From an uncultured Candidatus Saccharibacteria bacterium (lineage in GTDB: Bacteria; Patescibacteriota; Saccharimonadia; Saccharimonadales; JAGQNJ01): 64,000 nucleotides of DNA. The notes beneath the pieces are model-generated. The model had not been told where the DNA came from. It did no database searches and saw only the letters and a program-made list of their open reading frames with translations. The DNA is taken from assembly GCA_964510945.1 (NCBI GenBank), contig CAZEED010000001.1:164577-228576 (forward strand). Reading direction: 5' to 3'. Both the position numbers and the translations under genes were made by a program. Positions 22,602-39,514 of the stretch are shown here, piece after piece (the stretch's first letter is position 1; every line of letters begins with the position of its first letter).

Positions 22602-23519
22602 TTACTTTTTGTTTAGGGCTCTTCTAACACGCGGAGGGATAAAATCGATTGCCTCATCAGCCGAAGCTATCACTGTTGGGGCATGACTTTCAGACTTTAT
22701 TACACTTGTCTTAAAATCACTAAAGACAATCTTCATATGTTGATTGACGATATGGCGATCCAGGTATTGATCGTTATCTACGGCGATGCATTCTAGGTGG
22801 GTAGACACGCTTACAGAACAGATGTCGATGTTCAGGATCCGGTTAAGCGTATAAAAGTGCGTCCTAATGTCGTTGATTCGCCAAAGATTAGTCTCAAAGT
22901 CTATGCGCAACTGTTTTTGCTCGGGTGGTTCGCTTTTATTATGCCTATCGGCAAACAGTAGACTCCAGCGCACTAACGGCTTTATCTTTAGTCCTAGACG
23001 CATAATGCCCGAGATAATTCTGGTGGACAGAATCTTAGTCAAAGCCCGAAATACCTGCATCTTCCTATGCGGATATTTGATATCACTATGGTGCAAAAAG
23101 CCAACACCACTAACCAGTAGATCCACTCTATCAGCCAGATCAGGATATTTTTGCAGCATCCTTGTAGTAATCCCAAAACCAAGCGAAACGGCGACAATAG
23201 TTAATCGTTTATTCTTATATCTCAGCTTTATAAAGGCCGCTAGATAATCTGCCAGATTATCAATCGTCGGGGCCACGCCTATCTTAAAATAGCTATCCAT
23301 ACCACCAAAGCCCGGCAGATCAGGGATAGTTATTGCCCCATACCGGTTCAAGGCCCTAGCAAAGCCCTCCATGCGCTCTAGGCTAGCATGATGCCCATAG
23401 ACTATTAGGATTTCTTTAGTTTTATTTTTCGGCGCAGGCATACGTAGCATCCGGCCACGCAATCCGTTTATCAAAAATGGTTTTATATAATTTTCTATTT
23501 CTTGATCGTTCACGCTCAT
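22602..23519 (-). CDS. alpha/beta-hydrolase fold protein
   Basis: HG...PGFGG region and a nucleophile-elbow-like VSLGFG. Assignment is tentative. Confidence 0.55.
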   Translation of the reverse strand: MSVNDQEIENYIKPFLINGLRGRMLRMPAPKNKTKEILIVYGHHASLERMEGFARALNRYGAITIPDLPGFGGMDSYFKIGVAPTIDNLADYLAAFIKLRYKNKRLTIVAVSLGFGITTRMLQKYPDLADRVDLLVSGVGFLHHSDIKYPHRKMQVFRALTKILSTRIISGIMRLGLKIKPLVRWSLLFADRHNKSEPPEQKQLRIDFETNLWRINDIRTHFYTLNRILNIDICSVSVSTHLECIAVDNDQYLDRHIVNQHMKIVFSDFKTSVIKSESHAPTVIASADEAIDFIPPRVRRALNKK

Positions 23520-23597
23520 ACAACTAATAGCCTACTAAATTTGTTTGATTTAACCCAATTAAACAAGGTAATTTGCTATAATTCTACTACTGATTCT

Positions 23598-24335
23598 ATG
23601 AAAAATAAAAAACTCCTATATTTCGCTGCAATAACTCTTGTTTTCATAGTTTTCTTTGGACAGTTAAAAGCATTCTTAACAAAAGACGACCAAAGGGCAT
23701 ATAAGACTGGCGACACAACATCGAATATCGATAAGTCCAAGCATTCCACGACCGAACCGGGTAGTTTATGGGTAATTGTTAATAAACAAAATCCATTGCC
23801 GAAGGATTTTTCACCGGCTGACTTAATTGACGCAAAATCACTCGAGGTTACTAACCCAGACGAGTCCAAACTGCGACCAGATGCTAATAAGGCTTTAGCA
23901 GAGCTTGTTAAATCGGCAGGTAAAGACAAATTAACCTATGTAATGATTAGTGGATATCGATCATACAATCTTCAAGATATAGTCTACGGCGGTAATGTCA
24001 GCAAAGATGGGCAAAAAAAAGCCGATGCCACAAGTGCCCGACCAGGTTATAGCGAACATCAGACTGGACTAGGCCTAGATCTAGGCAGGGCAGATGGTAA
24101 ATGTCGGCTAGAGACGTGTTTTGGCGAAACGACGGAGGGCAAGTGGCTGGCCGATAATGCCTACAAGTTTGGCTTTATTGTGCGCTATCAACAGGGAGAG
24201 CAGGGTATTGTTGGTTATAGTTACGAGCCTTGGCATCTGCGTTATGTTGGCAAAGAGCTGGCGGATGAATTGTTTAAGAAAGATTTGACTATGGAAGAGT
24301 TTTTTGGGTATCCGGCGGCACCTAATTATAAATAA
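23598..24335 (+). CDS. D-alanyl-D-alanine carboxypeptidase, VanY/peptidase M15B family, membrane anchored
   Basis: The internal ATG at 23598 gives MKNKKLLYFAAITLVFIVFF (signal/anchor). SGYRSY, SEHQTGLGLDL and EPWHLRYVG motifs. Confidence 0.8.
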   Translation: MKNKKLLYFAAITLVFIVFFGQLKAFLTKDDQRAYKTGDTTSNIDKSKHSTTEPGSLWVIVNKQNPLPKDFSPADLIDAKSLEVTNPDESKLRPDANKALAELVKSAGKDKLTYVMISGYRSYNLQDIVYGGNVSKDGQKKADATSARPGYSEHQTGLGLDLGRADGKCRLETCFGETTEGKWLADNAYKFGFIVRYQQGEQGIVGYSYEPWHLRYVGKELADELFKKDLTMEEFFGYPAAPNYK

Positions 24336-24351
24336 ATGTCTAACTCAGATT

Positions 24352-24374
24352 GCAAGCTAGAAGCTTGCATCTTT
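24352..24374 (+). terminator. weak terminator-like hairpin after the VanY gene
   Basis: GCAAGCT-AGA-AGCTTGC followed by ATCTTT. Confidence 0.35.
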
Positions 24375-24455
24375 CACACTTTTAGCCGTAAAAGTGTGGC
24401 AAAACTCCTGCCTAGCACAAAAACACTATTGAACTGAATTGTTGTTTGTACAATG
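24375..24455. repeat. left outer repeat: hairpin (CACACTTTTA-GCCG-TAAAAGTGTG) plus a 58-nt arm inverted relative to 36063-36123
   Basis: The last 27 nt (TTGAACTGAATTGTTGTTTGTACAATG) match the reverse complement of 36063-36089 at 25 of 27 positions. CAAAACTCCTGCCT versus CAAAACTTCTGCCT lies further out. Confidence 0.7.
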
Positions 24456-24701
24456 TCTCAGCAAAATTTACTCTGTCTTACGACAGATGTGCAGTTTCGC
24501 GTTCTCCAAATATTGTACAAGCCAACAACAGATTCAATCGGTTTTAGTGCTTTTACGGCAGCCGGGAACCGCAAACGAAATTCGTTCGATTCTTAAGAAG
24601 GGGGTACACCACAAACACAGGGAAAGGCAAGGGCTAACTAAGACAACTGAGTGTTGTTGTTCGTCTAAAAATCGTTATCAACAAATGATACAATATAGTT
24701 T

Positions 24702-25007
24702 ATGAGTGATAGTGCGACAAAAGCTGATATTAAGCGAGTAGAGAAAAAGATTGACAGTGCTGTCGAGGATTTGTCGCAAATTATTTCCGATTTTGCATCT
24801 AGCGTAGACAGAAGATTCAATATTGTCGAGGCAAGGTTAGACGATTTAGATGCTAAATTCGATAGGCTACTTAATACTGTTGATGGATTCGTCGCACGAT
24901 TAGATAAATACGAGACGGAGCTTGCTGCGCGAGATCATAAAATTGACCGATTAGAGAAATGGATAGAGCAGTTAGCGAAAAAGACTAATACTAAATTAAC
25001 TGTTTAG
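24702..25007 (+). CDS. small coiled-coil protein (paralogue of 35840-36049)
   Basis: 101 aa with heptad-like pattern. C-terminal ARDHKIDRLEKW resembles LDDHEQRIRALES in the other copy. TACAAT lies 7 nt upstream of the ATG and there is no SD. Confidence 0.6.
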   Translation: MSDSATKADIKRVEKKIDSAVEDLSQIISDFASSVDRRFNIVEARLDDLDAKFDRLLNTVDGFVARLDKYETELAARDHKIDRLEKWIEQLAKKTNTKLTV

Positions 25008-25047
25008 CAGACATATCTACTTTGGCGACCTAATGCTTGCGTAGAAT

Positions 25048-25196
25048 CATACTTTTCTCTCCAGCAATAAAAGTATGCAAAAGTGCCGCCCCGGCTCAAA
25101 AAAATAGATGGTCACAAAAGTGTTATTGCCCGTGCCTGTGGAATGCAAGCACCCCAAATAGTTTAATTAGAGTAATTATTTGGGGTAGTCCTCGGC
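25048..25196. repeat. left inner inverted-repeat arm (two hairpin modules)
   Basis: CATACTTTTCTC...AAAAGTATG (25048-25077) and CCTGTGGAATGCAAGCACCCC-hairpin-GGGGTAGTCCTCGGC (25135-25196) both recur inverted at 35514-35667. Confidence 0.75.
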
Positions 25197-25467
25197 ATCC
25201 ATTCAGCCAATAACGCTTCCGCTCCCTCTGTTTTTGAGAAGGTGAGAACTGCCTGTGGCAGTTTGCAAGGCCGGAAGCACGGTGCAAATTATTGCCCGAG
25301 GTGAGGCGTGGCGACAACCGATTGCCAGCGAGCTGGCAGTAGGATTGTGGCAGAAAATGCAATCAGTGCAACACCAGGACAAGCCGGACGCCCAAACAAA
25401 CACAAACTCGGGGGGATAAAACCGTAGCCCTAGCAAACCCTCTCCCATCCGCGTAAAATTACACTAA
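25197..25467. ncRNA. candidate structured non-coding region upstream of radC (identity unknown)
   Basis: Visibly more GC-rich than its surroundings. Nested complementary segments: CCTCGGC/GCCCGAGG, GCTTCCG/CGGAAGC, AACTGCC/GGCAGTT, GCCAGC/GCTGGC. No credible ORF. Confidence 0.3.
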
Positions 25468-26130
25468 ATGGCGGGAATTAGAAAAATTAAGGATATCGCT
25501 AAAATTGATAGGCCTAGGGAAAAGCTGAAATCTAAAGGACCAGGGGCGCTTTCGGATCTAGAGCTCCTTATGGCGCTTATAGGCAGTGGGAACAAACAAG
25601 CGGATGTAAACACGATTGCGAGGAGAGCACTTAAAATCTTACAAAAATGTGGTGCTGATATTACTTACGAACAACTGAAAGAAGTAACTGGCCTAGGCTC
25701 GGCTAAAATCACCGAGATTTTAGCGGCCTTGGAGCTATCAAAACGTTACTTGTTTGATTCAGAACAGCCAATAATCGATTCGCCCGAGAAGGCCGTCGAG
25801 CAACTTTCCGATATTAGAGACAAAAAACAAGAATACTTTGTGTGCTTAACTCTCGATGGCGCAAATCGGCTGATTGCTAAGCGTATTATTACGATAGGAA
25901 CATTAACAAGTTCACTAGTCCACCCAAGGGAGGTCTTCGCCGACGCAATCACCGACCGAGCCGCCAGCATAATAGTCGCCCACAACCACCCGAGCGGCAG
26001 CACGACACCCAGCAAAGCAGACCTTGAAATAACCAATAGGCTAGTGGGTGCGGGAGAAATACTCGGTATCAAACTACTAGATCACATAATTGTTACGGAA
26101 AATGCTCATAAAAGCCTAGCGATCCGTTGA
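25468..26130 (+). CDS. radC: RadC-like JAMM-domain protein
   Basis: HhH-like N-terminus (SDLELLMALIGSG) and the JAMM motif VAHNHPSGSTTPSKADLEIT. Confidence 0.9.
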   Translation: MAGIRKIKDIAKIDRPREKLKSKGPGALSDLELLMALIGSGNKQADVNTIARRALKILQKCGADITYEQLKEVTGLGSAKITEILAALELSKRYLFDSEQPIIDSPEKAVEQLSDIRDKKQEYFVCLTLDGANRLIAKRIITIGTLTSSLVHPREVFADAITDRAASIIVAHNHPSGSTTPSKADLEITNRLVGAGEILGIKLLDHIIVTENAHKSLAIR

Positions 26131-26140
26131 CAGATCAGAA

Positions 26141-26176
26141 TTGCAATTATTGTAGTGTAAGAATACAATAATTGCA
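26141..26176 (+). promoter_or_regulatory. promoter with an embedded perfect 13-bp inverted repeat (candidate operator)
   Basis: TTGCAA (26141-26146), 17 nt, TACAAT (26164-26169), then 6 nt to the ATG at 26176. TGCAATTATTGTA (26142-26154) is the exact reverse complement of TACAATAATTGCA (26164-26176). Confidence 0.5.
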
Positions 26177-26922
26177 TGGACAAAAATCCAGGACCAAAAC
26201 AGCGTGTTAACCTTTTTGGCTATTTAGATGAAACCGGACTACTGCATACCCCTGCAACAGATAAGGTCTTTGGACTTGGGCTCACTGTTTGCCAGAACCC
26301 AAAAGAATTACACCGCAGCATTATTAACTTCCGAAATAGCCGAAAGTTTTATAAAGAGTTTAAGTTTACTGAGATTAGACAGACTAATCTACGAATATAC
26401 AAAGAACTTGTTGACATATTCTTTAACACAAAAAACACTACCTTTTCGTGTGTTGTTTACGATAAAAAAGATCTGGATCTAAAAAAGTATTTCAAGGGCG
26501 ACTATGAGCGTGCTTATGGTGTTTTTGTGGCCCGACTCATATCTAACACCCTAGAAGCCCATGCCAGCAAAGGCAGTAACTATATTGTTGTGTTGGCCGA
26601 TGATGTTTCTACAAGCAAGGATGATCGTTTTGAAAAGGTTGTCAAAGAGAAGGTAAAGATGCGTCTTCGACGTAACGCCGTCTTTGGTGTTGCACGGCTA
26701 GAATCACACGCTATTACAGAAATACAAATGACCGACGTATTGCTTGGCATAATTGCGTATAGCTTCAAAGTGAAGTTTGGCTTGGTAAAAGGGAACGGTG
26801 CTAAACTAGAGATGGTGAAATACCTTCAGAAAAAACTGGGTGTAAAAAAGCTTTCGGAGACTCACAGTAAAAAACTAAAAGGTGGAATGTACATGCAAAT
26901 CGAGGAATACAATGCCAAGTAA
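26176..26922 (+). CDS. DUF3800-like protein
   Basis: N-terminal NLFGYLDETG resembles the conserved DESG start of DUF3800 proteins. 248 aa. This call relies on recall of the family, not a search. Confidence 0.6.
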   Translation: MDKNPGPKQRVNLFGYLDETGLLHTPATDKVFGLGLTVCQNPKELHRSIINFRNSRKFYKEFKFTEIRQTNLRIYKELVDIFFNTKNTTFSCVVYDKKDLDLKKYFKGDYERAYGVFVARLISNTLEAHASKGSNYIVVLADDVSTSKDDRFEKVVKEKVKMRLRRNAVFGVARLESHAITEIQMTDVLLGIIAYSFKVKFGLVKGNGAKLEMVKYLQKKLGVKKLSETHSKKLKGGMYMQIEEYNAK

Positions 26923-27061
26923 CCAAGAGATTTTAAGCCAAATAAAAATAGATGGCGCTTTGGGTGCAATGATCATCGAAGATCAACCCACGCATTCCAT
27001 CTACCCTGTAATCTTAACAAAACATAACCCCGAAGTCAACAAAGTCAAGGTAAAGACATGA
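26912..27061 (+). CDS. possible 49-aa coupling ORF (MPSNQEILSQIKIDGALGAMIIEDQPTHSIYPVILTKHNPEVNKVKVKT)
   Basis: Fills the DUF3800-hsdM gap exactly. It overlaps the DUF3800 stop by 11 nt, and its TGA overlaps the hsdM ATG (ATGA). It is below the ORF-track length cutoff. Confidence 0.3.
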   Translation: MPSNQEILSQIKIDGALGAMIIEDQPTHSIYPVILTKHNPEVNKVKVKT

Positions 27062-28806
27062 GTAGTTCGCCAAAGAATCAAGCAGCATTAATTTGGAATA
27101 TCGCGGATATCTTGCGGGGTGGGTGGAAGCAGTACGAGTATCAGAACGTTATTTTGCCACTAGTTGTGCTAAAGCGTATTGATAGCGTACTCGCAAAGAA
27201 CAAACAAAAAGTGATCGAGACCAGTAACCAAATGGCTGATCGCGTATCAGACAGTGGTTTGGACAAGTTTTTACAAAAAGCCGCGCACACGCAGTTTTAT
27301 AACACCAGCCCATATGATTTCCAGAAGCTTTTAGAAGATAGCGAAAACGTTTACACCAATTTTATTGCCTACCTAGATGGTTTTAGTCCCAACATTCGTG
27401 ACATCGTGCAGAAGTTTGGTTTTGATGAGCAGATTAAGAAACTCAAGAGCAACAAAATTCTTTACCTGGTACTAAAAGAGCTGGATAAAGTTGACCTCAA
27501 CCCCGAGCACGTTACCAATCATGATATGGGTTACATTTTTGAAGAGCTTATTCGCAAGTTCAACGAGCAGTCTAACGAAACGGCCGGGGAACACTACACA
27601 CCACGCGAAGTTATTCGACTCATGACCCGCATCTTGCTCGAGCCAGATGCTGATAAAATTAAAGGTGAAAGTAAAATTATAGAAATTTACGATCCGTGCT
27701 GCGGTACTGGCGGTATGCTCACTATTAGCAAAGAGCACATTCTGCAAGATATTAACCCCAAAGCGATGGTCTATCTCTACGGCCAGGAGCTCAACAGCCA
27801 AACTTACGCCATTGCTAAATCTGACATTCTAATAAAAGGCGAAGATGCCGACCTAATAAAAGGGGGTAGTGGTGAACATAGCGAGGATAGCACACTCAGT
27901 AACGATCAATTCTACGACAAAACGTTTGACTACGTTATAGCCAATCCGCCTTACGGTGTTGATTGGAAAAAAGATAAAGAAGCAGTTGAGGCCGAAGCTG
28001 CCCGCGGTGAGGCCGGAAGGTTCCCCGCCGGTACGCCAGCAGTTAGTGATGCGCAATTATTATTCTTGCAGCATATGGTAAGCAAAATGCGACCTATTAG
28101 CGAAGGCGGCGGGCGAGTAGCGGTAGTACATAATGGCTCACCACTATTTACAGGTGCAGCTGGAAGTGGGCCAAGTAATATTCGTAAATACTTGTTAGAA
28201 AACGATTTGCTTGAGGCAATTATTGCCTTGCCAACTAACATGTTCTACAACACTGGCATTGCTACCTACATTTGGGTACTAACAAATCGTAAAGAAGACG
28301 TACGTAAAGACAAAGTACAGCTGATAGATGCCAGCCAGATATTCCATAAACTCCGCAAAAATCTGGGTGACAAGAATAAAGAACTCACGACAGAAGACAT
28401 AGAAAAGATTTTTGAGCTGTATACAGATTTTGCAGAGAGTAAAAAGAGCAAGATATTTGATACTACCGAGTTTGGCTACACCCAGGTAACAGTTGAGCGC
28501 CCAGAGTTTGATGAAAAAGGAAACGTTATAACCGATAGCAAAGGCAAGCCAAAACCAGATACTAGCAATCGCGACACCGAAAACATTCCACTGAGTGACG
28601 ATATTAATGAATATTTTGAAAGAGAAGTGAAGCCGCACGTCCGAGACGCCTGGATGGACCGAAAAAAAGACAAAGTTGGCTACGAGATACCGTTCAACCG
28701 CTATTTTTACGAATACGTACCACCACGTGATCTAGAAGAAATTGATAATGATTTGCAGAAAGCAACGAAAGAAATCCTCGATCTCCTAAATAAGGTAACT
28801 GAATAA
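27058..28806 (+). CDS. hsdM: type I restriction-modification system, methyltransferase subunit
   Basis: Motif I DPCCGTGGML and motif IV ANPPYG. 582 aa. Confidence 0.95.
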   Translation: MSSSPKNQAALIWNIADILRGGWKQYEYQNVILPLVVLKRIDSVLAKNKQKVIETSNQMADRVSDSGLDKFLQKAAHTQFYNTSPYDFQKLLEDSENVYTNFIAYLDGFSPNIRDIVQKFGFDEQIKKLKSNKILYLVLKELDKVDLNPEHVTNHDMGYIFEELIRKFNEQSNETAGEHYTPREVIRLMTRILLEPDADKIKGESKIIEIYDPCCGTGGMLTISKEHILQDINPKAMVYLYGQELNSQTYAIAKSDILIKGEDADLIKGGSGEHSEDSTLSNDQFYDKTFDYVIANPPYGVDWKKDKEAVEAEAARGEAGRFPAGTPAVSDAQLLFLQHMVSKMRPISEGGGRVAVVHNGSPLFTGAAGSGPSNIRKYLLENDLLEAIIALPTNMFYNTGIATYIWVLTNRKEDVRKDKVQLIDASQIFHKLRKNLGDKNKELTTEDIEKIFELYTDFAESKKSKIFDTTEFGYTQVTVERPEFDEKGNVITDSKGKPKPDTSNRDTENIPLSDDINEYFEREVKPHVRDAWMDRKKDKVGYEIPFNRYFYEYVPPRDLEEIDNDLQKATKEILDLLNKVTE

Positions 28807-28807
28807 A

Positions 28808-30061
28808 ATGGCACTCGCGACTTATCAAAGCACCAAAGATTCTGGCACTGCATGGCTTGGAACTATTCCCAAGTCTTGGGATTTGCGAAGAATCGGCAAT
28901 ACGTTTACTCAACGTAATGAGAGAGTCAGCGACAAAGATTTTCAGCCACTGTCAGTCACGAAAAAAGGCGTAGTGCTGCAATTAGATACAGCTGCAAAAA
29001 CCAATGATGGCGATAATCGTAAGAAAGTGATAGCTGGTGACTTTGTTATTAATAGCCGCTCTGATCGCAAAGGATCGAGCGGATTATCAGAGTTAGATGG
29101 CTCTGTGTCACTCATAAGCACCGTAATAAGATCAAGCGAACTTGAGCCACGATATACACACCATTTGCTTCGAAGTTATCCTTTCCAAGAAGAATTTTAT
29201 CGTTGGGGCCAAGGAATTGTGGCCGATTTATGGTCTACAAACTATCAGCGCATGAAAAATATTGCTATCCCAGTACCAAGCGCTGCTGAACAGAAAAAAG
29301 TTGCGGATTTTTTGGATGTTGAGACGGCAAAAATTGATAATTTGATTGCCAAGCAAGAAAAGCTGCTAAAATTGCTGGAAGAAAAACGCCGCGCAACCAT
29401 AACCCACGCCGTCACCCGCGGCCTAGACCCAGAAGTAAAACTTAAAGAAACCAACATTCCCTGGCTCGGCAAAATACCCACACATTGGGATATAGCCAGA
29501 ACTGCAAGATTATTTGCAGTAAATAAGGAAAGTAATACAAAATTAGATTCATTGAAACCCATGAAGTATGGTTTTGGAGAAATAGTTCCAAAACAAGTAG
29601 ATATTAATGAAAACACACAAGAAGAACTCAGAAGATATTTGTTAATACAGCCACAAGATATTATGATCAATGGCTTAAACCTAAACTATGACTTTATTAC
29701 ACAGCGAGTAGCCATCGTAAAGACAGGTGGCTGCATGACTCCTGCATACATATCCCTTAGAAAACGTAATGAGGGAGTAGTACCTGAGTACTATAAGTAC
29801 TTACTGAAGGCGCTTGACAGTCAGAAAGTGCTGAATGGCTGGGGTAATGGTATTAGGTTAACCCTCAATTATTCCGAGCTTAAAAAGAAGGAATTAGCAA
29901 AGCCACCCACCGATGAACAATTAAAAATTGTCGAATATCTGGATAAATATATAGAGAAAAGCGATGATTTAAAGCAAAAAATCCAAGAGCAAATCAAGCT
30001 CCTCAAAGAGCGCCGCACAAGTCTTATCAGCCACGCCGTAACCGGAAAAATAAAAGTATGA
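28808..30061 (+). CDS. hsdS: type I R-M specificity subunit
   Basis: Two target-recognition regions separated by conserved helical spacers (AEQKKVADFLD...IDNLI and EQLKIVEYLD...LKERRTSLISHAVTGKI). Confidence 0.9.
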   Translation: MALATYQSTKDSGTAWLGTIPKSWDLRRIGNTFTQRNERVSDKDFQPLSVTKKGVVLQLDTAAKTNDGDNRKKVIAGDFVINSRSDRKGSSGLSELDGSVSLISTVIRSSELEPRYTHHLLRSYPFQEEFYRWGQGIVADLWSTNYQRMKNIAIPVPSAAEQKKVADFLDVETAKIDNLIAKQEKLLKLLEEKRRATITHAVTRGLDPEVKLKETNIPWLGKIPTHWDIARTARLFAVNKESNTKLDSLKPMKYGFGEIVPKQVDINENTQEELRRYLLIQPQDIMINGLNLNYDFITQRVAIVKTGGCMTPAYISLRKRNEGVVPEYYKYLLKALDSQKVLNGWGNGIRLTLNYSELKKKELAKPPTDEQLKIVEYLDKYIEKSDDLKQKIQEQIKLLKERRTSLISHAVTGKIKV

Positions 30062-30693
30062 CAATTATATTAGACCCGCTGAATACATCAGACTTAATAG
30101 CCATACTCGGCATAATCATTGGCATAATGGTTTCGTATTTTATCTACAAGCTCACTACAAGAATTACTTTTTTCGAATCGATGAAACATAGATCTGAAAT
30201 ACAAACCGTACTCGCGAAGAAGATATCAGAAATAGCAAAAGGTCAAAACGCTAAAGTTGAATTCTATAATGTGAGGCTATTCAAAAATGATCATTTTAAA
30301 AACAACAATCGTCATTGGCTTTGGGGATACAGATACCGTGCTGCAGAGCTAGAGTCGTTTGGTGTTGATGGGGTAGAAGTAATTCGTATAGGTACAGAAA
30401 TACAACACCGAGGCAAGAAGATTAGCGCGCTAAAAGTCGGGCTCGTACCCTATAAGTACATTCAATATATAGATGCGGATGGCGACGATACTACAAATCG
30501 AATGATTATTTACGCAAAATGCCCAGCGTACAAATTCCCATTTAAGAAGACATATTATTATAAGATCAATAAAGACAAGACAATAGAGAAGTACTTCAGG
30601 CTAAATCTAACAATGGATGACAAACTGTACCTGCTAAGCGAATGGTTTAAGCGAAAGTATGGCTACTATAAGAACAGGAGAAAGCATGCTTGA
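30058..30693 (+). CDS. hypothetical membrane-anchored protein embedded in the R-M operon
   Basis: ATGA overlap with the hsdS stop. One N-terminal TM helix (LIAILGIIIGIMVSYFIY) and a Lys/Tyr-rich soluble domain. No motif recognised. Confidence 0.6.
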   Translation: MTIILDPLNTSDLIAILGIIIGIMVSYFIYKLTTRITFFESMKHRSEIQTVLAKKISEIAKGQNAKVEFYNVRLFKNDHFKNNNRHWLWGYRYRAAELESFGVDGVEVIRIGTEIQHRGKKISALKVGLVPYKYIQYIDADGDDTTNRMIIYAKCPAYKFPFKKTYYYKINKDKTIEKYFRLNLTMDDKLYLLSEWFKRKYGYYKNRRKHA

Positions 30694-31411
30694 CCAGTAT
30701 GAAGTAGCTGAGCGTGTTGTTAATGCCGGATTTGGAAGCGGAGCCATTGGGGTTTATAAGTCCGAAATAGTAAGGATTATCCAGGAACGGGTCGGGGGAT
30801 TATGTGCTGACCATCGAACGTTTGTCTATGTGCGTGCAAAGAATTTGCACAAGGATCAAGGGCTGGGTGGCGGCAATATAACTTCGGCTCTTGCAGCCTT
30901 TAGCGCACTAAGCCTTCTAACAAAGATCTGCTACTTTATCGACAAGCCCCAAAGGTTCACACCTGATGACGCTTTGTACTTTACTGTAAATGAGACGGAC
31001 GCTTTCAGTTATTTTATAAAACTACTCTCCCGTAACGGCATAGAGCTGGGAGTAGGAAAAGACGATACAGAGGGGCAAAGATTGATATGGAATGGATTTA
31101 GAGATTACCTTGCCCATTTAGGAACAGCGGAGCACGGTAAGCAAATCGTGACATTTGAGTTTAAGCAGCCCCGACGTGATCAACCTGCACCCACATTGGA
31201 TGCTAGGTTCAAGAAAATGTCCGAGTGGCAAGTATTTGAGCATGACGGTGGCGGCCGCAACTGGCGTGTATACATTGATGTGCTATTTGCAAAGATAGAG
31301 AGCATCATTCTGCCATTTGTGGTTTCTAAAGTTATCGAATATACCGTAGATAAAGACATAGCAGCAAGAAATCTTTATAAGTTAGTGTCGGGGGAGAAAG
31401 ACTTACCATGA
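30686..31411 (+). CDS. hypothetical cytoplasmic protein embedded in the R-M operon
   Basis: The ATG at 30686 lies 5 nt after AGGAG and overlaps the upstream stop by 8 nt. Its TGA overlaps the hsdR ATG. 241 aa with no motif recognised. Confidence 0.6.
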   Translation: MLDQYEVAERVVNAGFGSGAIGVYKSEIVRIIQERVGGLCADHRTFVYVRAKNLHKDQGLGGGNITSALAAFSALSLLTKICYFIDKPQRFTPDDALYFTVNETDAFSYFIKLLSRNGIELGVGKDDTEGQRLIWNGFRDYLAHLGTAEHGKQIVTFEFKQPRRDQPAPTLDARFKKMSEWQVFEHDGGGRNWRVYIDVLFAKIESIILPFVVSKVIEYTVDKDIAARNLYKLVSGEKDLP

Positions 31412-34383
31412 TAAATCTAAAAGAAATCAACTTCGAAAAATACATTACTGATTATTTAGTTGATGCTAATGAATATGTGCTCAGAGGTGCAGATAAGAAT
31501 AGCGTTGCGGTAAAAGATAAAGATTATGACCGGGCGTTAGCAATCGATGTTGGCGCAATGCAGCAGTTTATAGAAACTACACAGCCAGATGAGTGGGCTC
31601 GGCTAGTAGACCAATATGGCGCAGAAGATGCGGCGTTGCAGTTTGCTCGCCGAGTCGACCAAGATCTAACTGGTGTGAGTGTACTACAGATACTACGTGA
31701 TGGAGTAAGCGATAGGGGCGTGCATGTAGACTTTATGTACAATAAGCCTAATTCGGCTATAAATACCGAGCACTATAATCTCTATAACCAAAATATTTTT
31801 AGCGTACAGCGACAAGTTTACTTTAGCCCACGCGATGAGCGGTCTGTAGATATGGTGCTGTTCCTCAACGGTTTACCAATAGTTACTATGGAGCTCAAAA
31901 ACCAGCTAACAGGGCAGAATTATAACCACGCAATCTACCAATACCGAACAGAGCGTAAACCTAACGATAAACTCTTTAGTTTTAAGCGCTGTCTTGTGCA
32001 TTTTGCAGTAGATAACAACGAAGTACATATGACTACTGAAGTAAAAGGCCTTTCCACAAAATTCTTACCGTTCAACAAAGGTAATAAAAACGGTGCAGGC
32101 AACCCACCGGTAGATGGTAAATTCGCCTCACATTACTTATGGGAAGATGTACTAACAAAAGACAGTATTCTAGAGCTGGTGTCTAACTTTATGCATGTTC
32201 AGGTAGAAAAGAGCAAAGACAAAAAGACTGGACGGGTAACAAAAAAAGAAACGCAGCTATTCCCACGCTATCACCAACGCGATGTTGTGTTGCGTCTACT
32301 TGCTGACGCTAAAGAATTTGGCGCTGGTAAAAACTACCTCGTACAACATAGTGCCGGCTCTGGTAAGTCTAACTCTATTGCTTGGACGGCGCATAATCTG
32401 GCCAACCTATATGACGATAATGACGAAAAGGTCTTTGATAAAATAATTGTAATTGTAGATAGGCGCATCCTCGACAAGCAGTTGCGGCAAACCGTAACGC
32501 AATTTGAAAAACAGCGAGATGAAGTAAAAGGCGCAAAAACATCAGCCGAGCTAAAAGCTGCATTGCAAGATAAAACCAAAATTATAGTATCAACATTGCA
32601 AAAGTTCCCCGTTATTGTCGACACTATGGAAAATTTGCAAGGCAAAAAATTTGCTGTGATTGCTGATGAAGCTCACAGTAGCCAGAGCGGTGAAAGCACC
32701 AAAGCCTTAAAGCAAACCCTAAGTAATCTAGAAACTGCAGAAGTCGAAGATGAGGCGAATAGCGAAGCCGAAGACCCCGAAACTCAAATGGCACTGCAGG
32801 CGCAAGCGGCGCGAGGTAAACTGAGCCACGTGAGTTTCTTTGCTTTTACGGCTACGCCAAAGCAAAAAACGCTAGAATTATTTGGCCAACGTGGCTCTGA
32901 CGGGCAATTTTATCCATTTAGTTTGTACAGCATGAAGCAAGCAATAGAAGAAGGATTCATCCTTGATGTTCTAAAAAACTACACTACGCACAAAGTATAT
33001 TTTGAACTAGTAAAAAAAGTAAAAGAACATGACCCAGAGTTTGAAAAGAGTAAGGCTTACCGGCTAGCCATCAGCTTTGCCGACCTTCATGCATCTGGTA
33101 TAGAGAAAAAGGCCGAATTAATTGTTGAACACTTCCGTTCGCAAATAGAAAAACTAATTCGTGGTCAATCTAAAGCTATGATAGTTACTAAATCGCGATT
33201 GCATGCGGTGCGCTACTTCCAAACGGTGCGCGATTACCTAGCCAAGCAAGGGTACCCAATTAAAGCGATGGTGGCGTTCTCGGGTGAAATAAATGGTGAA
33301 ACTGAGTCTAGTTTAAATGGATTCCCAGAGAGTCAGACTGCTGATACATTTGATGAGCAAGATGAATACAAATTTTTAGTAGTGGCTAATAAGTACCAAA
33401 CAGGCTTTGACCAACCAAAGCTAGATGCCATGTATGTGGATAAGAAGCTCGGAGGTGTTGGAGCAGTGCAAACTCTAAGCCGCTTAAACCGCACAATGGA
33501 GTATAAGGAGGACGTATTTATACTTGACTTCGTAAACGGAACTGACGATATTCAAGCAGCGTTTGAGCCATATTACACCAGCACAATTTTATCTGAAGCA
33601 ACTGACCCGAATATTTTGTACGACGTAAAAAGAGACCTGCTAGCAGCCGGCGTATTTACAATTGAAGACGTGCTGCAACATTACGGCTTGCTAATTACCA
33701 ATAACGAAAAGAATCAAGCAGTTGTGGCTGGGCTACTGGATAAGGCCGTAGAAGTATTTCGGGATCAACTAGATGACGATGAGCAGGCGGATTTCCGTGA
33801 TAAGGTAGATGACTTTGTGCGGAAGTATAGCTTTATTGCACAGCTATTTACGTTTGGCGATGCTAGCCTAGAGCAGTTTTATGAATATGCTCGTAACCTA
33901 CGTAAGAAAATTCCTAAACAAAAAGAGGAGTTACCAACAGGGTTATTAGATGAAATCGATTTGAGCAGCATGGCCATATCAAAAGGCGTAAAGCATAAAA
34001 TTGGTCTAACTGAGGGCGAAGGCGCGCTCGAACCAATGACGAGCAACGGTCGCAGCACAAAACCACCTACTGAAATGGAGCGATTATCTCTAATAATTAA
34101 AAGTATTAATGAGCAGTATGGGCTGCCAGAAGATATGGAAGTTGATGGCTTGGCATTGATTACACGAGTCAAAGAACGTGAAGACGTTATTAAGGCAATA
34201 GCCAACAACCCGCGTGGGGCAGCAAAGACTAGATTTTCTCAGGTATTCGAAGAGGAACTTATGAAGATGTTTAGTGAACGAGCTGACTTTTTCCATGCCC
34301 TAGATAGCGACACGTCGCTAAAAGAAAACATCTCAGAGAAAGTATTTAATGAGTTATATAATTCGAAAGTGAGTAAAATATGA
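31408..34383 (+). CDS. hsdR: type I restriction enzyme, R (helicase-nuclease) subunit
   Basis: Walker A QHSAGSGKS, DEAH box VIADEAHSSQSG, QTLSRLNR. 991 aa. Confidence 0.95.
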   Translation: MINLKEINFEKYITDYLVDANEYVLRGADKNSVAVKDKDYDRALAIDVGAMQQFIETTQPDEWARLVDQYGAEDAALQFARRVDQDLTGVSVLQILRDGVSDRGVHVDFMYNKPNSAINTEHYNLYNQNIFSVQRQVYFSPRDERSVDMVLFLNGLPIVTMELKNQLTGQNYNHAIYQYRTERKPNDKLFSFKRCLVHFAVDNNEVHMTTEVKGLSTKFLPFNKGNKNGAGNPPVDGKFASHYLWEDVLTKDSILELVSNFMHVQVEKSKDKKTGRVTKKETQLFPRYHQRDVVLRLLADAKEFGAGKNYLVQHSAGSGKSNSIAWTAHNLANLYDDNDEKVFDKIIVIVDRRILDKQLRQTVTQFEKQRDEVKGAKTSAELKAALQDKTKIIVSTLQKFPVIVDTMENLQGKKFAVIADEAHSSQSGESTKALKQTLSNLETAEVEDEANSEAEDPETQMALQAQAARGKLSHVSFFAFTATPKQKTLELFGQRGSDGQFYPFSLYSMKQAIEEGFILDVLKNYTTHKVYFELVKKVKEHDPEFEKSKAYRLAISFADLHASGIEKKAELIVEHFRSQIEKLIRGQSKAMIVTKSRLHAVRYFQTVRDYLAKQGYPIKAMVAFSGEINGETESSLNGFPESQTADTFDEQDEYKFLVVANKYQTGFDQPKLDAMYVDKKLGGVGAVQTLSRLNRTMEYKEDVFILDFVNGTDDIQAAFEPYYTSTILSEATDPNILYDVKRDLLAAGVFTIEDVLQHYGLLITNNEKNQAVVAGLLDKAVEVFRDQLDDDEQADFRDKVDDFVRKYSFIAQLFTFGDASLEQFYEYARNLRKKIPKQKEELPTGLLDEIDLSSMAISKGVKHKIGLTEGEGALEPMTSNGRSTKPPTEMERLSLIIKSINEQYGLPEDMEVDGLALITRVKEREDVIKAIANNPRGAAKTRFSQVFEEELMKMFSERADFFHALDSDTSLKENISEKVFNELYNSKVSKI

Positions 34384-35303
34384 ACTTAGGGAAGTTTAAG
34401 AAAGTTGCGCTTAGGGAGATTTGGAAGCATGAGGCTTTAGATTTTACTAATTGGCTGGCACTAGATGAAAATCTGGAGCTTTTGAGCGATGTTTTAGAAA
34501 CCGGTATTGTAAATGCCCAAACAGAGGTGGGGGTTGGTAAATTTTCCGTAGATATCTTGGCTGAAGACGAGAATGGTCACAAAGTAATTATCGAGAACCA
34601 GCTAGAAACTACCAATCATGATCATTTGGGTAAAATTATTACCTATGCATCGGGTTTACAGGCAGAAACGATTGTTTGGGTTGTGAAAAATGCAAGGGAA
34701 GAGCACGAACAAGCTGTTAATTGGCTTAATGAAAATACAAACGAAAAAGTAAACTTTTTTCTGATAGAAATTGAAGCATGGAAAATTAATGATTCACCAC
34801 CCGCGCCTCGGTTCAACATTATTGCAAAACCAAACGACTGGGCAAAAACCATCAAAAAAAGCGCCAGCGGTAATAAGGTGTCTGACCTACAGCTGAAACA
34901 GCAGGAATTTTGGAGTCGTTTATCGGACTATGGGAAGGAGCACTCCAAATATGTAAAGACCTGGCAAAAAGGATTACCTCAAGCTTGGATGAACATAACA
35001 ATTGGGACTTCACAAGCCAACCTTGCAGCAGTTATGAACAAAGAAAGAAAACAAAATGTTGGTATCGAACTTTATATCCATGAAGATAAAAACATTTTCT
35101 ATAAACTTTTTTCTAAAAAGGATGAAATCGAGAAGGCCCTTGGGTATGAAGTCGACTGGCAAGAACTACCTGACAAAAAAGCATCTAGGGTTCTTGTCCT
35201 TCGTGATGGTGACTTTAGAGACGAAAGTATAGATACAGAATTGATAGTCTGGTTGCATCAAAAAGCAGAAGAATTTACTAAAGTTTTCAAAAAATATTTA
35301 TAA
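34380..35303 (+). CDS. DUF4268-like protein with an N-terminal PD-(D/E)xK-like nuclease core
   Basis: ATGA overlap with hsdR. FSVDILAEDENGHKVIIENQLETTNHDHLGKIITY is the pattern I associate with NucS-like/DUF4268 proteins that accompany R-M systems. Confidence 0.6.
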   Translation: MNLGKFKKVALREIWKHEALDFTNWLALDENLELLSDVLETGIVNAQTEVGVGKFSVDILAEDENGHKVIIENQLETTNHDHLGKIITYASGLQAETIVWVVKNAREEHEQAVNWLNENTNEKVNFFLIEIEAWKINDSPPAPRFNIIAKPNDWAKTIKKSASGNKVSDLQLKQQEFWSRLSDYGKEHSKYVKTWQKGLPQAWMNITIGTSQANLAAVMNKERKQNVGIELYIHEDKNIFYKLFSKKDEIEKALGYEVDWQELPDKKASRVLVLRDGDFRDESIDTELIVWLHQKAEEFTKVFKKYL

Positions 35304-35513
35304 ATGCTGTATTAGTTTCTTGGCATATGAATGTTAGGAAATATTTTTTGCATTGATAGGGATTTGTTTGTGGGGTAAAAGTACTCAAACCGATTGGGGT
35401 GTTGTTGACATACACAATATCTGCGTACAGCTGTTTGGCCTTTGGTTTTTCCTCGACTGGTGTTGTTTGCCTCTGTTTTTCCTGAATAACTTTGTCAATA
35501 CTACAACTAGTTA

Positions 35514-35667
35514 GCCGAGGACTACCCCGAATTCATACTCTAAAAACAATAATTCGGGGTGCTTGCATTCCACAGGCTGTTGTAGCTATTGACTGGAAGT
35601 TATATCAAGAACACACAGTCGGCATGGCACTTTTTGCCATACTTTTCTTGCTACTGAGAAAAGTATG
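35514..35667. repeat. right inner inverted-repeat arm
   Basis: The reverse complement of 35514-35576 equals 25135-25196 in the first 21 and last 15 nt, with two compensatory base-pair changes in the 9-bp stem. The hairpin at 35638-35667 is the inverted copy of 25048-25077. Confidence 0.75.
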
Positions 35668-35766
35668 AATTAAGTTTGTCGATACAAAGTAATGAGGTGC
35701 GAGTTTCAGCTCGAAATCATGCGTTTTGAACCCAGTCGGCACTTTGCTATTCCACTGGACAGCGGA

Positions 35767-35792
35767 TTCTTTCTACTGAGAAAAGTATGAAG
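35767..35792 (+). repeat. partial direct duplicate of the 3' half of the 35638-35667 hairpin
   Basis: TCTTTCTACTGAGAAAAGTATGAAG versus TCTTGCTACTGAGAAAAGTATGAAT. Confidence 0.6.
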
Positions 35793-35839
35793 TTTGAAAT
35801 CGCGTGTTTGCAGTAATTGTTCATGTTATATTAGTACTT

Positions 35840-36049
35840 ATGGATGATGCAGCAATCGAAGATTTAAAACAGTTTATTGCAACAACGGTGCGAAATGAAG
35901 TCGTAGCTGAAGGTGACAAAATTCGCGAAGATATGAAAGATGGTTTTGCCGGAGTAGGCGAAGCAATGTCAGATATGGGAGAGAGCGTAGATAAAACACT
36001 TGATGACCACGAACAGAGGATAAGGGCTTTAGAATCCAAGACAATATAA
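35840..36049 (+). CDS. small coiled-coil protein (paralogue of 24702-25007)
   Basis: The ATG at 35840 lies 7 nt after TATATT with no SD. 69 aa, MDDAAIEDLKQFIATTVRNEV...LDDHEQRIRALESKTI. Confidence 0.55.
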   Translation: MDDAAIEDLKQFIATTVRNEVVAEGDKIREDMKDGFAGVGEAMSDMGESVDKTLDDHEQRIRALESKTI

Positions 36050-36062
36050 ATTTTGTCCAAAG

Positions 36063-36123
36063 CATTGTACGAACAACAATTCAGTTTAAAAATGTTTTTT
36101 CCGACTAAGGCAGAAGTTTTGAA
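36063..36123. repeat. right outer inverted-repeat arm
   Basis: Inverted copy of 24398-24455 (see that entry). Confidence 0.7.
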
Positions 36124-36262
36124 TTTCCGCCAGCGGCGGATTGTCGGCACAAAGTAATAAAACGCGAGCATCAGCTCGCAAGCTTATAATATGAGTCAAA
36201 TTGTCGCTTTGTAGTCTTTGGTAGCTGACTAAAAATGTAAGGAGTTAGATATTAAAGCTCTA

Positions 36263-36637
36263 TCAATTATTTTGAAACGATTTTTCAAACTCTGTACTGT
36301 CTATAAAAACATTGCCACCCGGAGTCGTGCATTTATATTGAGCTGGATTACTTCCCAAAACAATAACACCTTCTGGATATTTTTCTGCGCATTCTGCGTA
36401 TGAAAAAATACTTTCCGTAAAAACGTTGCCGCCTGGGGTTGTGCATTCGTATTGGGCTGGGTCACTACCTTTAACTAAAACTCCTTCTGGAAAGTTTTTT
36501 GCACATTCTGCGTATGAGTTAACATAAACAACTAAACCTATTTTTTGCAGATAAAATATCCCAAATGCAATTAATAATATTGCCAAAACACATACTGATA
36601 TAAAGGTTGTTTTTTTATTTTTATTCTTTTTTACCAT
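36263..36637 (-). CDS. small membrane-anchored protein with an internal tandem Cys-containing repeat
   Basis: The start at MVKKNKNKK is preferred. One TM helix, then two copies of YAECA-x-(N/K)(F/Y)PEGV-x-V-x-GS(D/N)PAQY-x-CTTPGGNVF. Confidence 0.6.
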   Translation of the reverse strand: MVKKNKNKKTTFISVCVLAILLIAFGIFYLQKIGLVVYVNSYAECAKNFPEGVLVKGSDPAQYECTTPGGNVFTESIFSYAECAEKYPEGVIVLGSNPAQYKCTTPGGNVFIDSTEFEKSFQNN

Positions 36638-36827
36638 TATATGTAGCATACAGATAAATATAAGCACAAACAACATCAATCTATGCTAGAGAATCGTCTG
36701 ATTAACGGAGTCGCTCAGAGAAAAACAGCTTGCCACCCTAAACAGACGAGAAATATGTGAGGTAGGGGTTGCATGACTAGTGTCACTGACCAGTTAACGG
36801 GGATTTTTGATCTTTGTTGATACTTTT

Positions 36828-37493
36828 TTAGGCTACTTTTTGGCGTTGGGCATCTGCGGGACGCACAATTATATCGATATCATGTGTCGCTCGGTGCAGG
36901 GTAGCAAAAACTTGATCGCCGGTAACCAGTTCTGCGATAGCAATAGGCTGATCATTAAGTGGCAGATTATTTACGAAATCGAGACTTATATCTTGTTCAG
37001 TCCCTAGTGTCGTTCCAAGAGCTCCTAATAATCTCATCGTATCCTCATTACGCTTTATAGAAGATTCGCCAAATCTTTTGGCTTTCTTAAATGTGCCCTT
37101 GGGCTCATGGGTTGTATGGAATATCCCGATTTGAATACCAGTGTCTCTAACTCGAACATTATTGTAACGTGTACCGCCAGGAAGAGTAAGTGTTGATCGG
37201 GAGTGTTCACCTTTAAATGTCCCAGCGACAACATACTCAACTATTGTTTTTGCCACTTCATATGCTCTATATGGGTCGTTGTATTTGTCACGTGCGATTG
37301 CGCCTAACATAGTTGGAATAAATTGCTCTAGCCCGTTAGCGGCTGGTTCCGGTTGATTGGGTATTTGTTCTAAGTAATGCCCAGATTCGCGTTCTAACAA
37401 ATAACCGAGTTCAGCCTCTGCCCACTGGCAAGCTGTCTCACGTCTATTTAAATTGGCATCATATTGTGCTTCTAAATCGAAATTCTTTGGCAT
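36828..37493 (-). CDS. hypothetical protein
   Basis: 221-aa ORF with no motif recognised. Confidence 0.5.
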   Translation of the reverse strand: MPKNFDLEAQYDANLNRRETACQWAEAELGYLLERESGHYLEQIPNQPEPAANGLEQFIPTMLGAIARDKYNDPYRAYEVAKTIVEYVVAGTFKGEHSRSTLTLPGGTRYNNVRVRDTGIQIGIFHTTHEPKGTFKKAKRFGESSIKRNEDTMRLLGALGTTLGTEQDISLDFVNNLPLNDQPIAIAELVTGDQVFATLHRATHDIDIIVRPADAQRQKVA

Positions 37494-37601
37494 TTTACTC
37501 CGTTTTTTGTAAACAATATATTATAACGCTTATAGCTAACTATTGCAATACCTTATAAGATAAGCATTTAAGGTAATGCTGCTCTAATGTTCCCTTATAT
37601 G

Positions 37602-38504: not shown

Positions 38505-38665
38505 ATAACTACAAATCATTCTAAAGTATAACAGCCAGGTATATTAATAGAATCGTAAAATTGCCAGCGGTAACAATTGATTTTTTGTCGAAACTATTAG
38601 AGGCTTCACTATTTAACAGATTCACATATTTACATATGGTTCAGTTTATGTTACTATCATTGAAT

Positions 38666-39514
38666 ATGACGGAATTTGATCAAGATCAATTTAATTTTGA
38701 TGTCCCACAAGAATTAGGTGGAGGCATTATCGCTGAAGAAGAGTATCGGCCAACACCCGGCACCGAAGCTTTGCTTGGTGCACTTCTACTTGACGAACCT
38801 CAGTTCGTGAGTGAAGTGGGGACCCTTGTCGGTCAATTGCTGAATCCTTCTGGCGAACAATACATAGATAATGTTTTTGAAGATGGTAGCGAAGTCTTAA
38901 GATATTTTCATAGCACTGAAAGTCTAAATATCGATAGATATGACATCGCCGAAGCTATACGTCTAACAAAACCAGTTGGTAACCTTATTGATGCTCAATC
39001 ATCTCTAGGCGTCGAACCCACATCAGAACAAGTAAAATTTTTAGCCCGAACCACAGATCTAGGTCTTTTACTGGAAGTTATTGATGAGGAACTAACTAAA
39101 CCTTATCGTTTGAGTGAAGAATCTGAAGCAGAATCTTCACCACACATAGTTGGATCTTACGTCATAGAAAACGATGTTGTAGATGCAGTTTACTTAAGCC
39201 AGGTGACATCGAGTTCTCCTTACTTAAGAGCCAAACAGGACAGTGGCGAAGCCTCGCTTACTGACGACGAACAGCAAGTTAGAGATTTTTACGAGGGACG
39301 AGTTGGAAAAATCGGTTTTAGCGTCTTGTCAGCAGTTCACACATTGATGATTGCTGAAGCTATAGATGAGATCAGACGAAAATCTGCGTCAGGAAAAGTC
39401 AGCGTACATAGTGCCGGTCCTATGCATCGTAAATTAGTGTGGTTTGGCAAACAAGTTGAGCTAGATCAAGACTGGGTTAGTATCGTAGCCGGCGGAAACG
39501 CATCCCAAAACTAA
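38666..39514 (+). CDS. hypothetical acidic protein (start uncertain; the ORF is open from 38561)
   Basis: TTTACA, 17 nt, TACTAT, then 8 nt to the ATG at 38666. No motif recognised. Confidence 0.5.
   Translation: MTEFDQDQFNFDVPQELGGGIIAEEEYRPTPGTEALLGALLLDEPQFVSEVGTLVGQLLNPSGEQYIDNVFEDGSEVLRYFHSTESLNIDRYDIAEAIRLTKPVGNLIDAQSSLGVEPTSEQVKFLARTTDLGLLLEVIDEELTKPYRLSEESEAESSPHIVGSYVIENDVVDAVYLSQVTSSSPYLRAKQDSGEASLTDDEQQVRDFYEGRVGKIGFSVLSAVHTLMIAEAIDEIRRKSASGKVSVHSAGPMHRKLVWFGKQVELDQDWVSIVAGGNASQN

Follow-up and report, generated by a model that had tools for sequence, protein, structure and literature searches.

A putative defence-cassette hotspot framed by folded intergenic elements in an uncultured Candidatus Saccharibacteria bacterium

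How phage-defence genes turn over in the bacteria of the Candidate Phyla Radiation (CPR), the Saccharibacteria among them, is unclear, since these genomes are tiny and hold few recognisable mobile elements. One locus that raises the question lies in a 64,000-nucleotide stretch from an uncultured Candidatus Saccharibacteria bacterium (assembly GCA_964510945.1, contig CAZEED010000001.1, positions 164,577 to 228,576; hereafter the window), where a block of restriction-modification (R-M) and other defence genes is enclosed by inverted repeats. An earlier note on this DNA had described an 11.8-kb island between two nested pairs of such repeats, and had proposed that they are the ends of a non-autonomous mobile island, sites for a recombinase encoded elsewhere that might invert the whole island, or a local family of palindromic intergenic elements. 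Do the repeats carry the island, flip it, or mark a place where other genes come and go? We compared the locus with related loci (designated by L numbers) and analysed the structure of the repeats. With rather more confidence than doubt, we read it as a hotspot resembling the minimal mobile elements of Neisseria, at which cassettes would be exchanged by recombination after natural transformation.

The repeats, or arms, comprise a left outer arm (OL, 24351-24561, plus strand), a left inner arm (IL, 25047-25408, plus), a right inner arm (IR, 35365-35713, minus) and a right outer arm (OR, 36038-36185, minus). The left core block consists of a gene for a VanY-type D-Ala-D-Ala carboxypeptidase (23502-24335, plus; Pfam VanY, 4e-40), syntenic in all relatives, and small gene 1 (24702-25007, plus; 101 aa, coiled coil), a core gene that adjoins VanY in all of them; the right block consists of a 221-aa gene without known family (36828-37493, minus) and a second VanY gene. 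The variable cargo between IL and IR (25468-35303, plus) holds genes for RadC, DUF3800 (PADLOC PDC-M04A), HsdM, HsdS, two unknown products, HsdR (31408-34383) and DUF4268 (PADLOC PDC-S11), of which HsdM, HsdS and HsdR make up a type I R-M system. Pfam and PADLOC bear out the names that the enclosed genes had been given. GC content is flat over the whole island, at about 41%.

In the relatives, the flanks were kept and the cargo was not. The left side runs through YbaB, RecR, DHH, CysS, glycosyltransferases, VanY and small gene 1, and the right side through the 221-aa gene, the second VanY gene and a sortase gene. L005 and L139 are close strains; core identity to the window is 93.5% in L168 and 77% in L166, and L166/L170 (Candidatus Saccharibacteria metagenome-assembled genome (MAG) GCA_035329585.1) are a separate species. 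In the slot, L005 carries ferredoxin and N4/N6 methyltransferase genes, L139 a different HsdR and a small membrane protein, L168 a zeta toxin, TspO, a type IIG enzyme and an NYN gene, L166/L170 TspO, a DpnII-type R-M system, SNF2/PLD and AAA_15, and L172/L174 a type III R-M system and HEPN. The segment is therefore not fixed: its cargo is replaced in L005, L139, L168 and L166/L170, and in L139, L005, L168 and L166 the arms persist and the cargo alone differs. The right flank of L139 is 98.5% identical to that of the window, and the homology stops at 35353, the 3' end of IR. Identical or near-identical copies of the locus were present on metagenome contigs from several samples, and many metagenome contigs stop at or within IR (35353-35759), as is expected where co-occurring strains differ. 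To judge from these sequences, the slot between two conserved core blocks gains and replaces defence cassettes across strains and species.

What, then, are the arms? Repeat detection on 23000-37500 and sensitive blastn of 24200-25600 against 35200-36400 both recovered the outer and inner inverted pairs reported in the earlier note, which are real and far above chance. The outer pair matches 24400-24479 with 36121-36038 (77% over 84 nt, E 2e-12), with a core of 89% complementarity between 24419-24455 and 36063-36099. The inner pair matches 25047-25196 with 35668-35514 (70% over 156 nt, E 9e-17), and 26 nt of its core are 96% complementary (25134-25159 vs 35552-35577). A third inverted pair, absent from that note, joins 24507-24556 and 35423-35375 (78% over 50 nt). 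The looser similarity that had been drawn out to 25440 and 35440 for the inner pair was not supported: nothing on the right corresponds to 25240-25380 on the left. In the weak extension of the outer pair to 24352 and 36185, the two sides share the shape of a hairpin and differ in it by compensatory changes (GCAAGCT/AGCTTGC vs GCGAGC/GCTCGC). The two left copies point right and the two right copies point left, so that all face the variable cargo. They are mutually 70-84% alike, with a longest exact run of about 22 nt. No further copy of any arm was found elsewhere in the 64-kb window; with copies confined to the locus there and with variable cargo, the picture is not one of scattered repeats around a fixed segment.

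By their sequence, the arms are four members of a single family of folded intergenic elements, of which the locus also has one fragment, as hairpin B and the linker that follows it are shared by outer and inner arms. The family is previously undescribed and has no match in Rfam. Its elements are 150-360 nt long and run in the order hairpin A, hairpin B, GCAAAA and an imperfect rod. Hairpin A is G+C-rich and terminator-like and lies directly past the stop codon of the upstream gene, and hairpin B has the form CAYACTTTT-loop-AAAAGTRTG. The stems of the rod vary by compensatory changes, and its internal loops (CTTGAT...ATCAGGAAAA) and apex (TGYGGAAC, hairpin, AGTCCTCGSC) are kept. Type-1 and type-2 apex motifs were present in the window, L005, L139, L166, L168, L170 and L014.

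Each arm shows this plan in its own way. OL is a full element, with hairpin A at 24351-24369, hairpin B at 24375-24398 followed by GCAAAAC, and a rod at 24408-24561 closed by CTGCC...GGCAG; compared with L005b, its stems show compensatory changes. IL, a type-1 element, has hairpin B at 25048-25077 and a rod with an apex domain at 25121-25216 (TGTGGAATGCAAGCA, hairpin, TAGTCCTCGGC). It also has an extra, highly conserved non-coding domain of about 140 nt (25240-25380) with the hairpins ACTGCC..GGCAGT and TTGCCAG..CTGGCAG; this domain has no Rfam match, and a coding role for it was dropped because no open reading frame (ORF) is conserved. IR, also of type 1, has hairpin A at 35699-35713, hairpin B at 35638-35667, an apex domain at 35496-35589 and a 3' module at 35375-35423, the partner of 24507-24556 in the third inverted pair. 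OR is a shortened OL-type element with a weak fold (z = -1.8), in which a terminator-like hairpin A (36163-36180) is followed by a TCCGCC..GGCGGA hairpin in place of hairpin B and by the 5' half of the rod only. A terminator scan flagged hairpin A of OR alone (36180-36163). The fragment, at 35724-35791 on the minus strand, is the 3' half of a B hairpin with its linker: 35767-35791 is 96% identical to 35645-35669, and 35724-35745 is complementary to 25080-25101.

Structure, rather than sequence, is what these copies have in common. Fold z-scores against shuffles were -4.8 to -7.6 (IR, -4.8; OL, -7.6 with -80.6 kcal/mol). Both strands folded equally well, and the numbers of G-U pairs on the two strands (75 vs 73 in 14 copies) showed no asymmetry. 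For eight aligned type-1 copies from the window and its relatives, RNAalifold gave 46 pairs, 29 of them with compensatory double changes; 94.2% of cells were paired in the predicted structure vs 75% in shuffled alignments and 39-47% with slid partners, and the covariation level was attained by none of 500 shuffles. The apex hairpin is built on four unrelated stems (CCCCGAATT, ATCTGATTC, CTCCCGAAC, CCCCAAATA), each with its complement, and its 17-nt loop is conserved. These results show that the element family is under structural selection. A covariance model built from the apex domain alone (R1) matched IL with 87 bits and IR with 99 bits. Rfam 15, including its radC and DUF3800 motifs, gave no match at gathering score in the window, no credible match at E up to 10 in 24200-25600 or 35250-36300, and none on the elements of 11 related loci. 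No DUF3800 RNA motif adjoins the DUF3800 gene of the window; elsewhere, a DUF3800-IX RNA (Rfam RF02968, 53 bits) was seen at L097 2162-2232 (-), 3.3 kb from a hairpin-B element. A local palindromic intergenic family was the best of the three options put forward earlier, though it understates the structural selection and the concentration in a conserved defence-cassette hotspot.

Related loci carry the elements in arrays. In GCA_035329585.1, four right-pointing elements follow VanY, the small gene, a 208-aa gene and TspO; unrelated cargo comes next, then two left-pointing elements with a transglutaminase-core gene in between, and one further copy lies past the 221-aa homologue. The transglutaminase-core gene parallels small gene 2 of the window (35840-36049, plus; 69 aa), which lies between the right inner and outer arms and opposite to both. 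In this species, then, the inward-facing frame of the window is seen again, around unrelated cargo. L166/L170 thus hold seven copies in about 14 kb (L166 array elements at 9703, 10373, 11784 and 12486), and none in the adjoining 9-10 kb of core on either side.

Comparison of elements, cassettes and core genes pointed to horizontal flow. IR is 90.7% identical to L166 element E4 (12486-12687), from the first base of hairpin B to the foot of the rod, compared with 77% for the core of the same pair; E4 has the opposite orientation relative to VanY and follows a different gene. IL is 76.6% identical to L170 element E6 over 368 nt, and 91% in domain 2 (25240-25380; L170 11376-11498). The TspO cassettes of L166 and L168 are 90% identical and sit at different array positions, with 77.6% identity in the core of this pair. 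As cassettes and elements are more alike than core genes, both move between lineages. The window HsdR shares 93.5% of its amino acids with the HsdR of L173 (10188-13160), vs 58% for the 221-aa flank gene, and L173 carries it in the equivalent slot, without elements and with an IS1595 transposase gene and a Replic_Relax gene beside the slot. The comparison of the window and L173 indicates that type I R-M genes recently reached this chromosomal position by horizontal transfer. In L172-L174 the R-M cargo of the slot varies and element copies are absent; the slot is older and wider than the element family.

The family reaches beyond this lineage. Hairpin B with its flanks (TTCACACTTTT-NNNNNN-AAAAGTGTGGCAAAACTCC; window 24375-24405) was also present in other CPR MAGs, labelled Daviesbacteria, Levybacteria, Patescibacteria and in some cases Gammaproteobacteria (L018, L067, L069, L080, L097, L124, L159, L160 and L165), and is almost identical across these labels. 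In those MAGs the rod that comes after it is another one, conserved and about 150 nt long (CGGGGGCTCACCCCC..GGAAATT, hairpin, CAGTTTCC), with visible covariation and no Rfam match; RNase P or 6S RNA was considered for this Microgenomates-type rod and dropped, since L040 has a normal RNase P and the elements have no Rfam match. A genome-contig search with a loose hairpin-B pattern gave about ten real loci among the matches listed, most of the others being chance, and a pattern search of metagenome contigs gave 7 loci and no close relative. Phage and plasmid collections held no match to the arms; in viral sequences the 3' module was unmatched, and the 7 chance matches to the apex pattern were each rejected by the covariance model. 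In giant-virus MAG bins (IMG/VR 3300009161-51 and 3300009183-74; L145-L156), AT-rich hairpin arrays of CACACTTTTnnnAAAAGTGTGGCAAAA, tandem and inverted, occur on many contigs; they are probably unrelated to the CPR elements and were found because the search pattern was their motif. In a Saccharimonas MAG, a 243-nt unit (L040 3779-4021) has the order A-B facing B-A with only about 140 nt between the arms, and sits between a beta-lactamase-fold gene and an M50 peptidase gene. This unit could represent an empty version of the frame, or else a MITE-like offshoot of the family (MITE, miniature inverted-repeat transposable element).

Under the reading that we favour, cassettes would be taken up by natural transformation and exchanged by homologous recombination, as in the minimal mobile elements of Neisseria. 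The slowly evolving elements and short shared cassette leaders would serve as portable homology or as cis-acting folded sites, and the folded form of the element could be RNA, single-stranded DNA or a cruciform. Terminal inverted copies would be retained since inverted copies cannot delete the island, as direct copies would. One such leader, promoter-like and with a presumed role before radC, lies at 25375-25467 (plus); by blastn, L005 1093-1182 and 1508-1542 match 25375-25484 of the window. The radC leader reads ..CCCAAAC..CAAACTC..CCC..GTAAAAT, then 7 nt and the ATG, and the C-rich leader (..CCCAAAC..CCC..GTAAAAT) is common to unrelated cassettes, including those of L005 and L168. Saccharibacteria are described as naturally competent in PMC10187176.

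The known systems nearest to this locus differ from it in instructive ways. PMC1797815 describes strain-specific R-M genes of Neisseria in minimal mobile elements, a concept that it credits to Saunders and Snyder 2002, adjoining mosaic intergenic repeats, namely NIME/dRS3 arrays and Correia elements. The locus likewise has a fixed slot between conserved genes, alternative and mostly R-M cassettes, and no mobility genes in the slot, except that L173 has the IS1595 transposase gene beside it; the host is naturally transformable, and the spaces between genes at variable loci contain modular repeats that form hairpins. Unlike the Neisseria repeats, the present elements belong to another phylum, are much longer (150-360 nt) and few, with none elsewhere in the 64 kb, and show clear covariation and conserved loops; recombination is here a deduction. 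BOX, ERIC/IRU and REP/BIME repeats share with them an intergenic position, a modular build, stable hairpins, conservation across species beyond neutral expectation and an uncertain function. In contrast to those repeats, no high copy number was seen for the present elements in the window and the related loci; the copies are clustered at one variable locus, and diverge by compensatory changes instead of being near-identical. Defence-island hotspots between core genes are known from the pangenomes of E. coli, Acinetobacter and Pseudomonas (e.g. PMC10121019), and there too one position between core genes holds unlike defence systems from strain to strain; as a rule such hotspots are filled by integrase-bearing integrative elements, whereas here no mobility gene was found and repeats punctuate the cassettes.

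Several observations weigh against exchange by homologous recombination. L173 shares the HsdR cargo and the slot with the window and has a flank gene of 58% identity and no elements, which flank homology explains poorly. Some cassette borders are element-free, such as those between the 112-aa gene, TspO and the type IIG gene in L168. Arms that are 70-84% alike, with a longest exact run of about 22 nt, are a poor substrate for recombining with one another, and the abrupt start of homology at the first base of hairpin B is just as compatible with a site-specific event. Single elements stand in housekeeping contexts in other Saccharibacteria MAGs (L040, L049 and L014), so that the family is not island-specific, though concentrated in the hotspot in this lineage.

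The elements might instead be sites analogous to attC, at which a recombinase encoded elsewhere captures, shuffles and loses cassettes site-specifically, an integron-like explanation that we consider possible but doubtful. As in integron arrays and in clusters of attC sites lacking integrases (CALINs), imperfectly palindromic sites lie between cassettes (L166), the fold is conserved over the sequence, with varying stems and conserved unpaired bases, cassettes are shuffled between genomes, and arrays can be without a nearby integrase. The equal folding of both strands is expected of a DNA site. The differing array positions of the TspO cassette in L166 and L168, the start of the IR-E4 homology exactly at the first base of hairpin B, the same cargo in the same slot despite the very divergent flanks of L173 and the many metagenome contigs that end at or inside IR would fit as well. 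However, no IntI was found. The Pfam-scanned ORFs, which cover most of the large ORFs of the window, have no integrase, transposase or invertase domain, in line with the earlier note, and there is no recombinase among the Pfam matches of 14.7-35 kb or in the 10-kb flanks of L166, L168 and L170. Nor were attC-type cores (R''/R'; GTTRRRY/RYYYAAC) noticed on reading the element sequences. Unlike integron sites, the elements of a single array can point either way, exceed attC two- to threefold in length and are missing from some boundaries, and the cassettes bear their own promoters; solitary copies in housekeeping contexts and the element-free R-M cargo of L172-L174 likewise speak against such sites. 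A kindred idea, which we entertain with considerable reserve, takes the elements as the 200-350-nt sites of an unrecognised cassette-capture system of Saccharibacteria and other CPR bacteria, integron-like but unrelated to integrons, that is read via hairpin B, itself conserved across phyla; an enzyme encoded elsewhere would then assemble and exchange defence cassettes at the fixed slot. With equal reserve we view the elements as cis-acting parts of transcripts (3' untranslated region, terminator-insulator or non-coding RNA) with no mobility role, which is compatible with the other readings; the inverted layout would then reflect transcription entering the slot from both core flanks. Hairpin A lies directly past the stops of VanY, small gene 1 and a minus-strand 138-aa gene, the terminator scan accepts the OR copy, and in other genomes most copies start no more than a few tens of bases from where a co-oriented gene ends. 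Conserved loops with covarying stems are typical of functional RNA, and one helix keeps a U-G pair in 6 of 10 copies. Yet neither stability nor G-U pairs show strand asymmetry, the gene that lies 5' of IR, of L166 E5 and of L170 E6 and E7 does not run in the direction of the element, and Rfam is silent even at E up to 10. The 90% copy identity between species with a 77% core would also be left unexplained.

Two further explanations take the inverted geometry at face value. A non-autonomous transposon or MITE-derived composite, with the arms as long terminal inverted repeats mobilised in trans and the defence genes as passengers, is highly improbable. The inward-facing ends with nested copies, the resemblance of the L040 A-B...B-A unit to an empty frame or MITE and the IS1595 transposase gene beside the L173 slot would all suit it, but the arms stay with the flanks as the cargo changes, and they are 70-84% alike rather than near-identical. 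No duplicated bases flank IR or L166 E4, direct-orientation copies lie inside arrays, the 5' and 3' termini of the element are not inverted copies of each other, and no relative was found with its flanks joined and no arms. Because the arms persist, diverge too far, lack a target duplication and have copies within arrays, they are not the ends of a mobile unit, as had been suggested. Scarcely credible is an invertible segment, in which the whole 10-12 kb would be flipped between the inverted arms as a phase-variation switch. Its support is the geometry only; one contig spans the whole island (L002/L125) and four span one junction each (L001, L003, L004 and L126), and all of them have the orientation of the window, so that the whole-island inversion raised earlier has no support. 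The segment includes a promoter region belonging to the type I R-M operon itself, no invertase was found, and the arms are too divergent for efficient homologous inversion.

The small genes beside the arms are conserved as proteins. The earlier note had placed a small plus-strand coiled-coil gene between the arms on each side; both genes are there, and the coiled coil is given for the 101-aa product, which has only weak coiled-coil matches in Pfam. Small gene 1 has homologues at the equivalent position in L166 (81%, in GCA_035329585.1) and L168 (63%), and its protein is unchanged on L005 although the DNA diverges by 5%. Small gene 2 has no family match, and the same protein is encoded on contigs with 91-100% DNA identity. 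Both genes thus keep protein-level identity on contigs 5-9% apart in DNA, and they resemble each other marginally (E 0.003). Small gene 1 has a leaderless-type promoter, with TACAAT 7 nt upstream of the ATG. In several cassette and small genes, a TAnnnT hexamer stands exactly 7 nt before the ATG without a Shine-Dalgarno sequence (24680-24704, 25440-25470 and 35805-35842; L005 1570-1597), an arrangement that suggests leaderless mRNAs.

To the right of small gene 2 (36049) lie minus-strand genes of unknown function. The minus-strand 138-aa ORF adjoining OR contains two tandem 109-nt copies, 78% identical and spaced by 114 nt (36295-36517), so that its protein has an internal repeat. The 221-aa flank protein has no match in Pfam, NCBIfam or PADLOC. 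Its homologues adjoin R-M cargo in distant Saccharibacteria (L170 10001-10618, L172 7248-7916 and L173 6416-7084), and the other side of them differs, with WhiB, an IS1595 transposase or VanY. We considered this protein as a hidden recombinase and set the idea aside; there is no family match, and an AlphaFold2 model from 7 homologues had a pLDDT of 44, which is inadequate for searching by fold. Close by, at 38540-39440, the locus varies a second time: L127 has 154-aa and 182-aa genes and the window a 292-aa gene, with 94-97% identity on both sides and no element copies.

Other ideas were also dropped. Hairpin-B 9-mers are not over-represented in the window, as a DNA uptake sequence would be. 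A sigma-54 promoter in TGGCAAAACTCCTGC was rejected because the GG-to-GC spacing varies between copies, and an operator for a dimeric regulator because the distance between half-sites is anything from 4 to 20 nt. Identity between the two VanY proteins is only 27%, which rules against a recent inverted VanY duplication framing the region. No similarity supported a small gene shared between the cassettes of different genomes (49 aa, 211 aa).

In summary, the locus presents a fixed slot without a detected recombinase, in which R-M and candidate defence genes appear to be exchanged among strains, and also among lineages whose flanks diverge strongly. Should the elements prove to be substrates for recombination, cassettes would have a hitherto unrecognised way of being exchanged; should they act as RNAs, they would form a new class of structured RNA associated with defence cassettes. 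The conserved flanks and the elements may serve as landmarks for defence hotspots in CPR metagenomes, and could provide landing pads in transformable Saccharibacteria.

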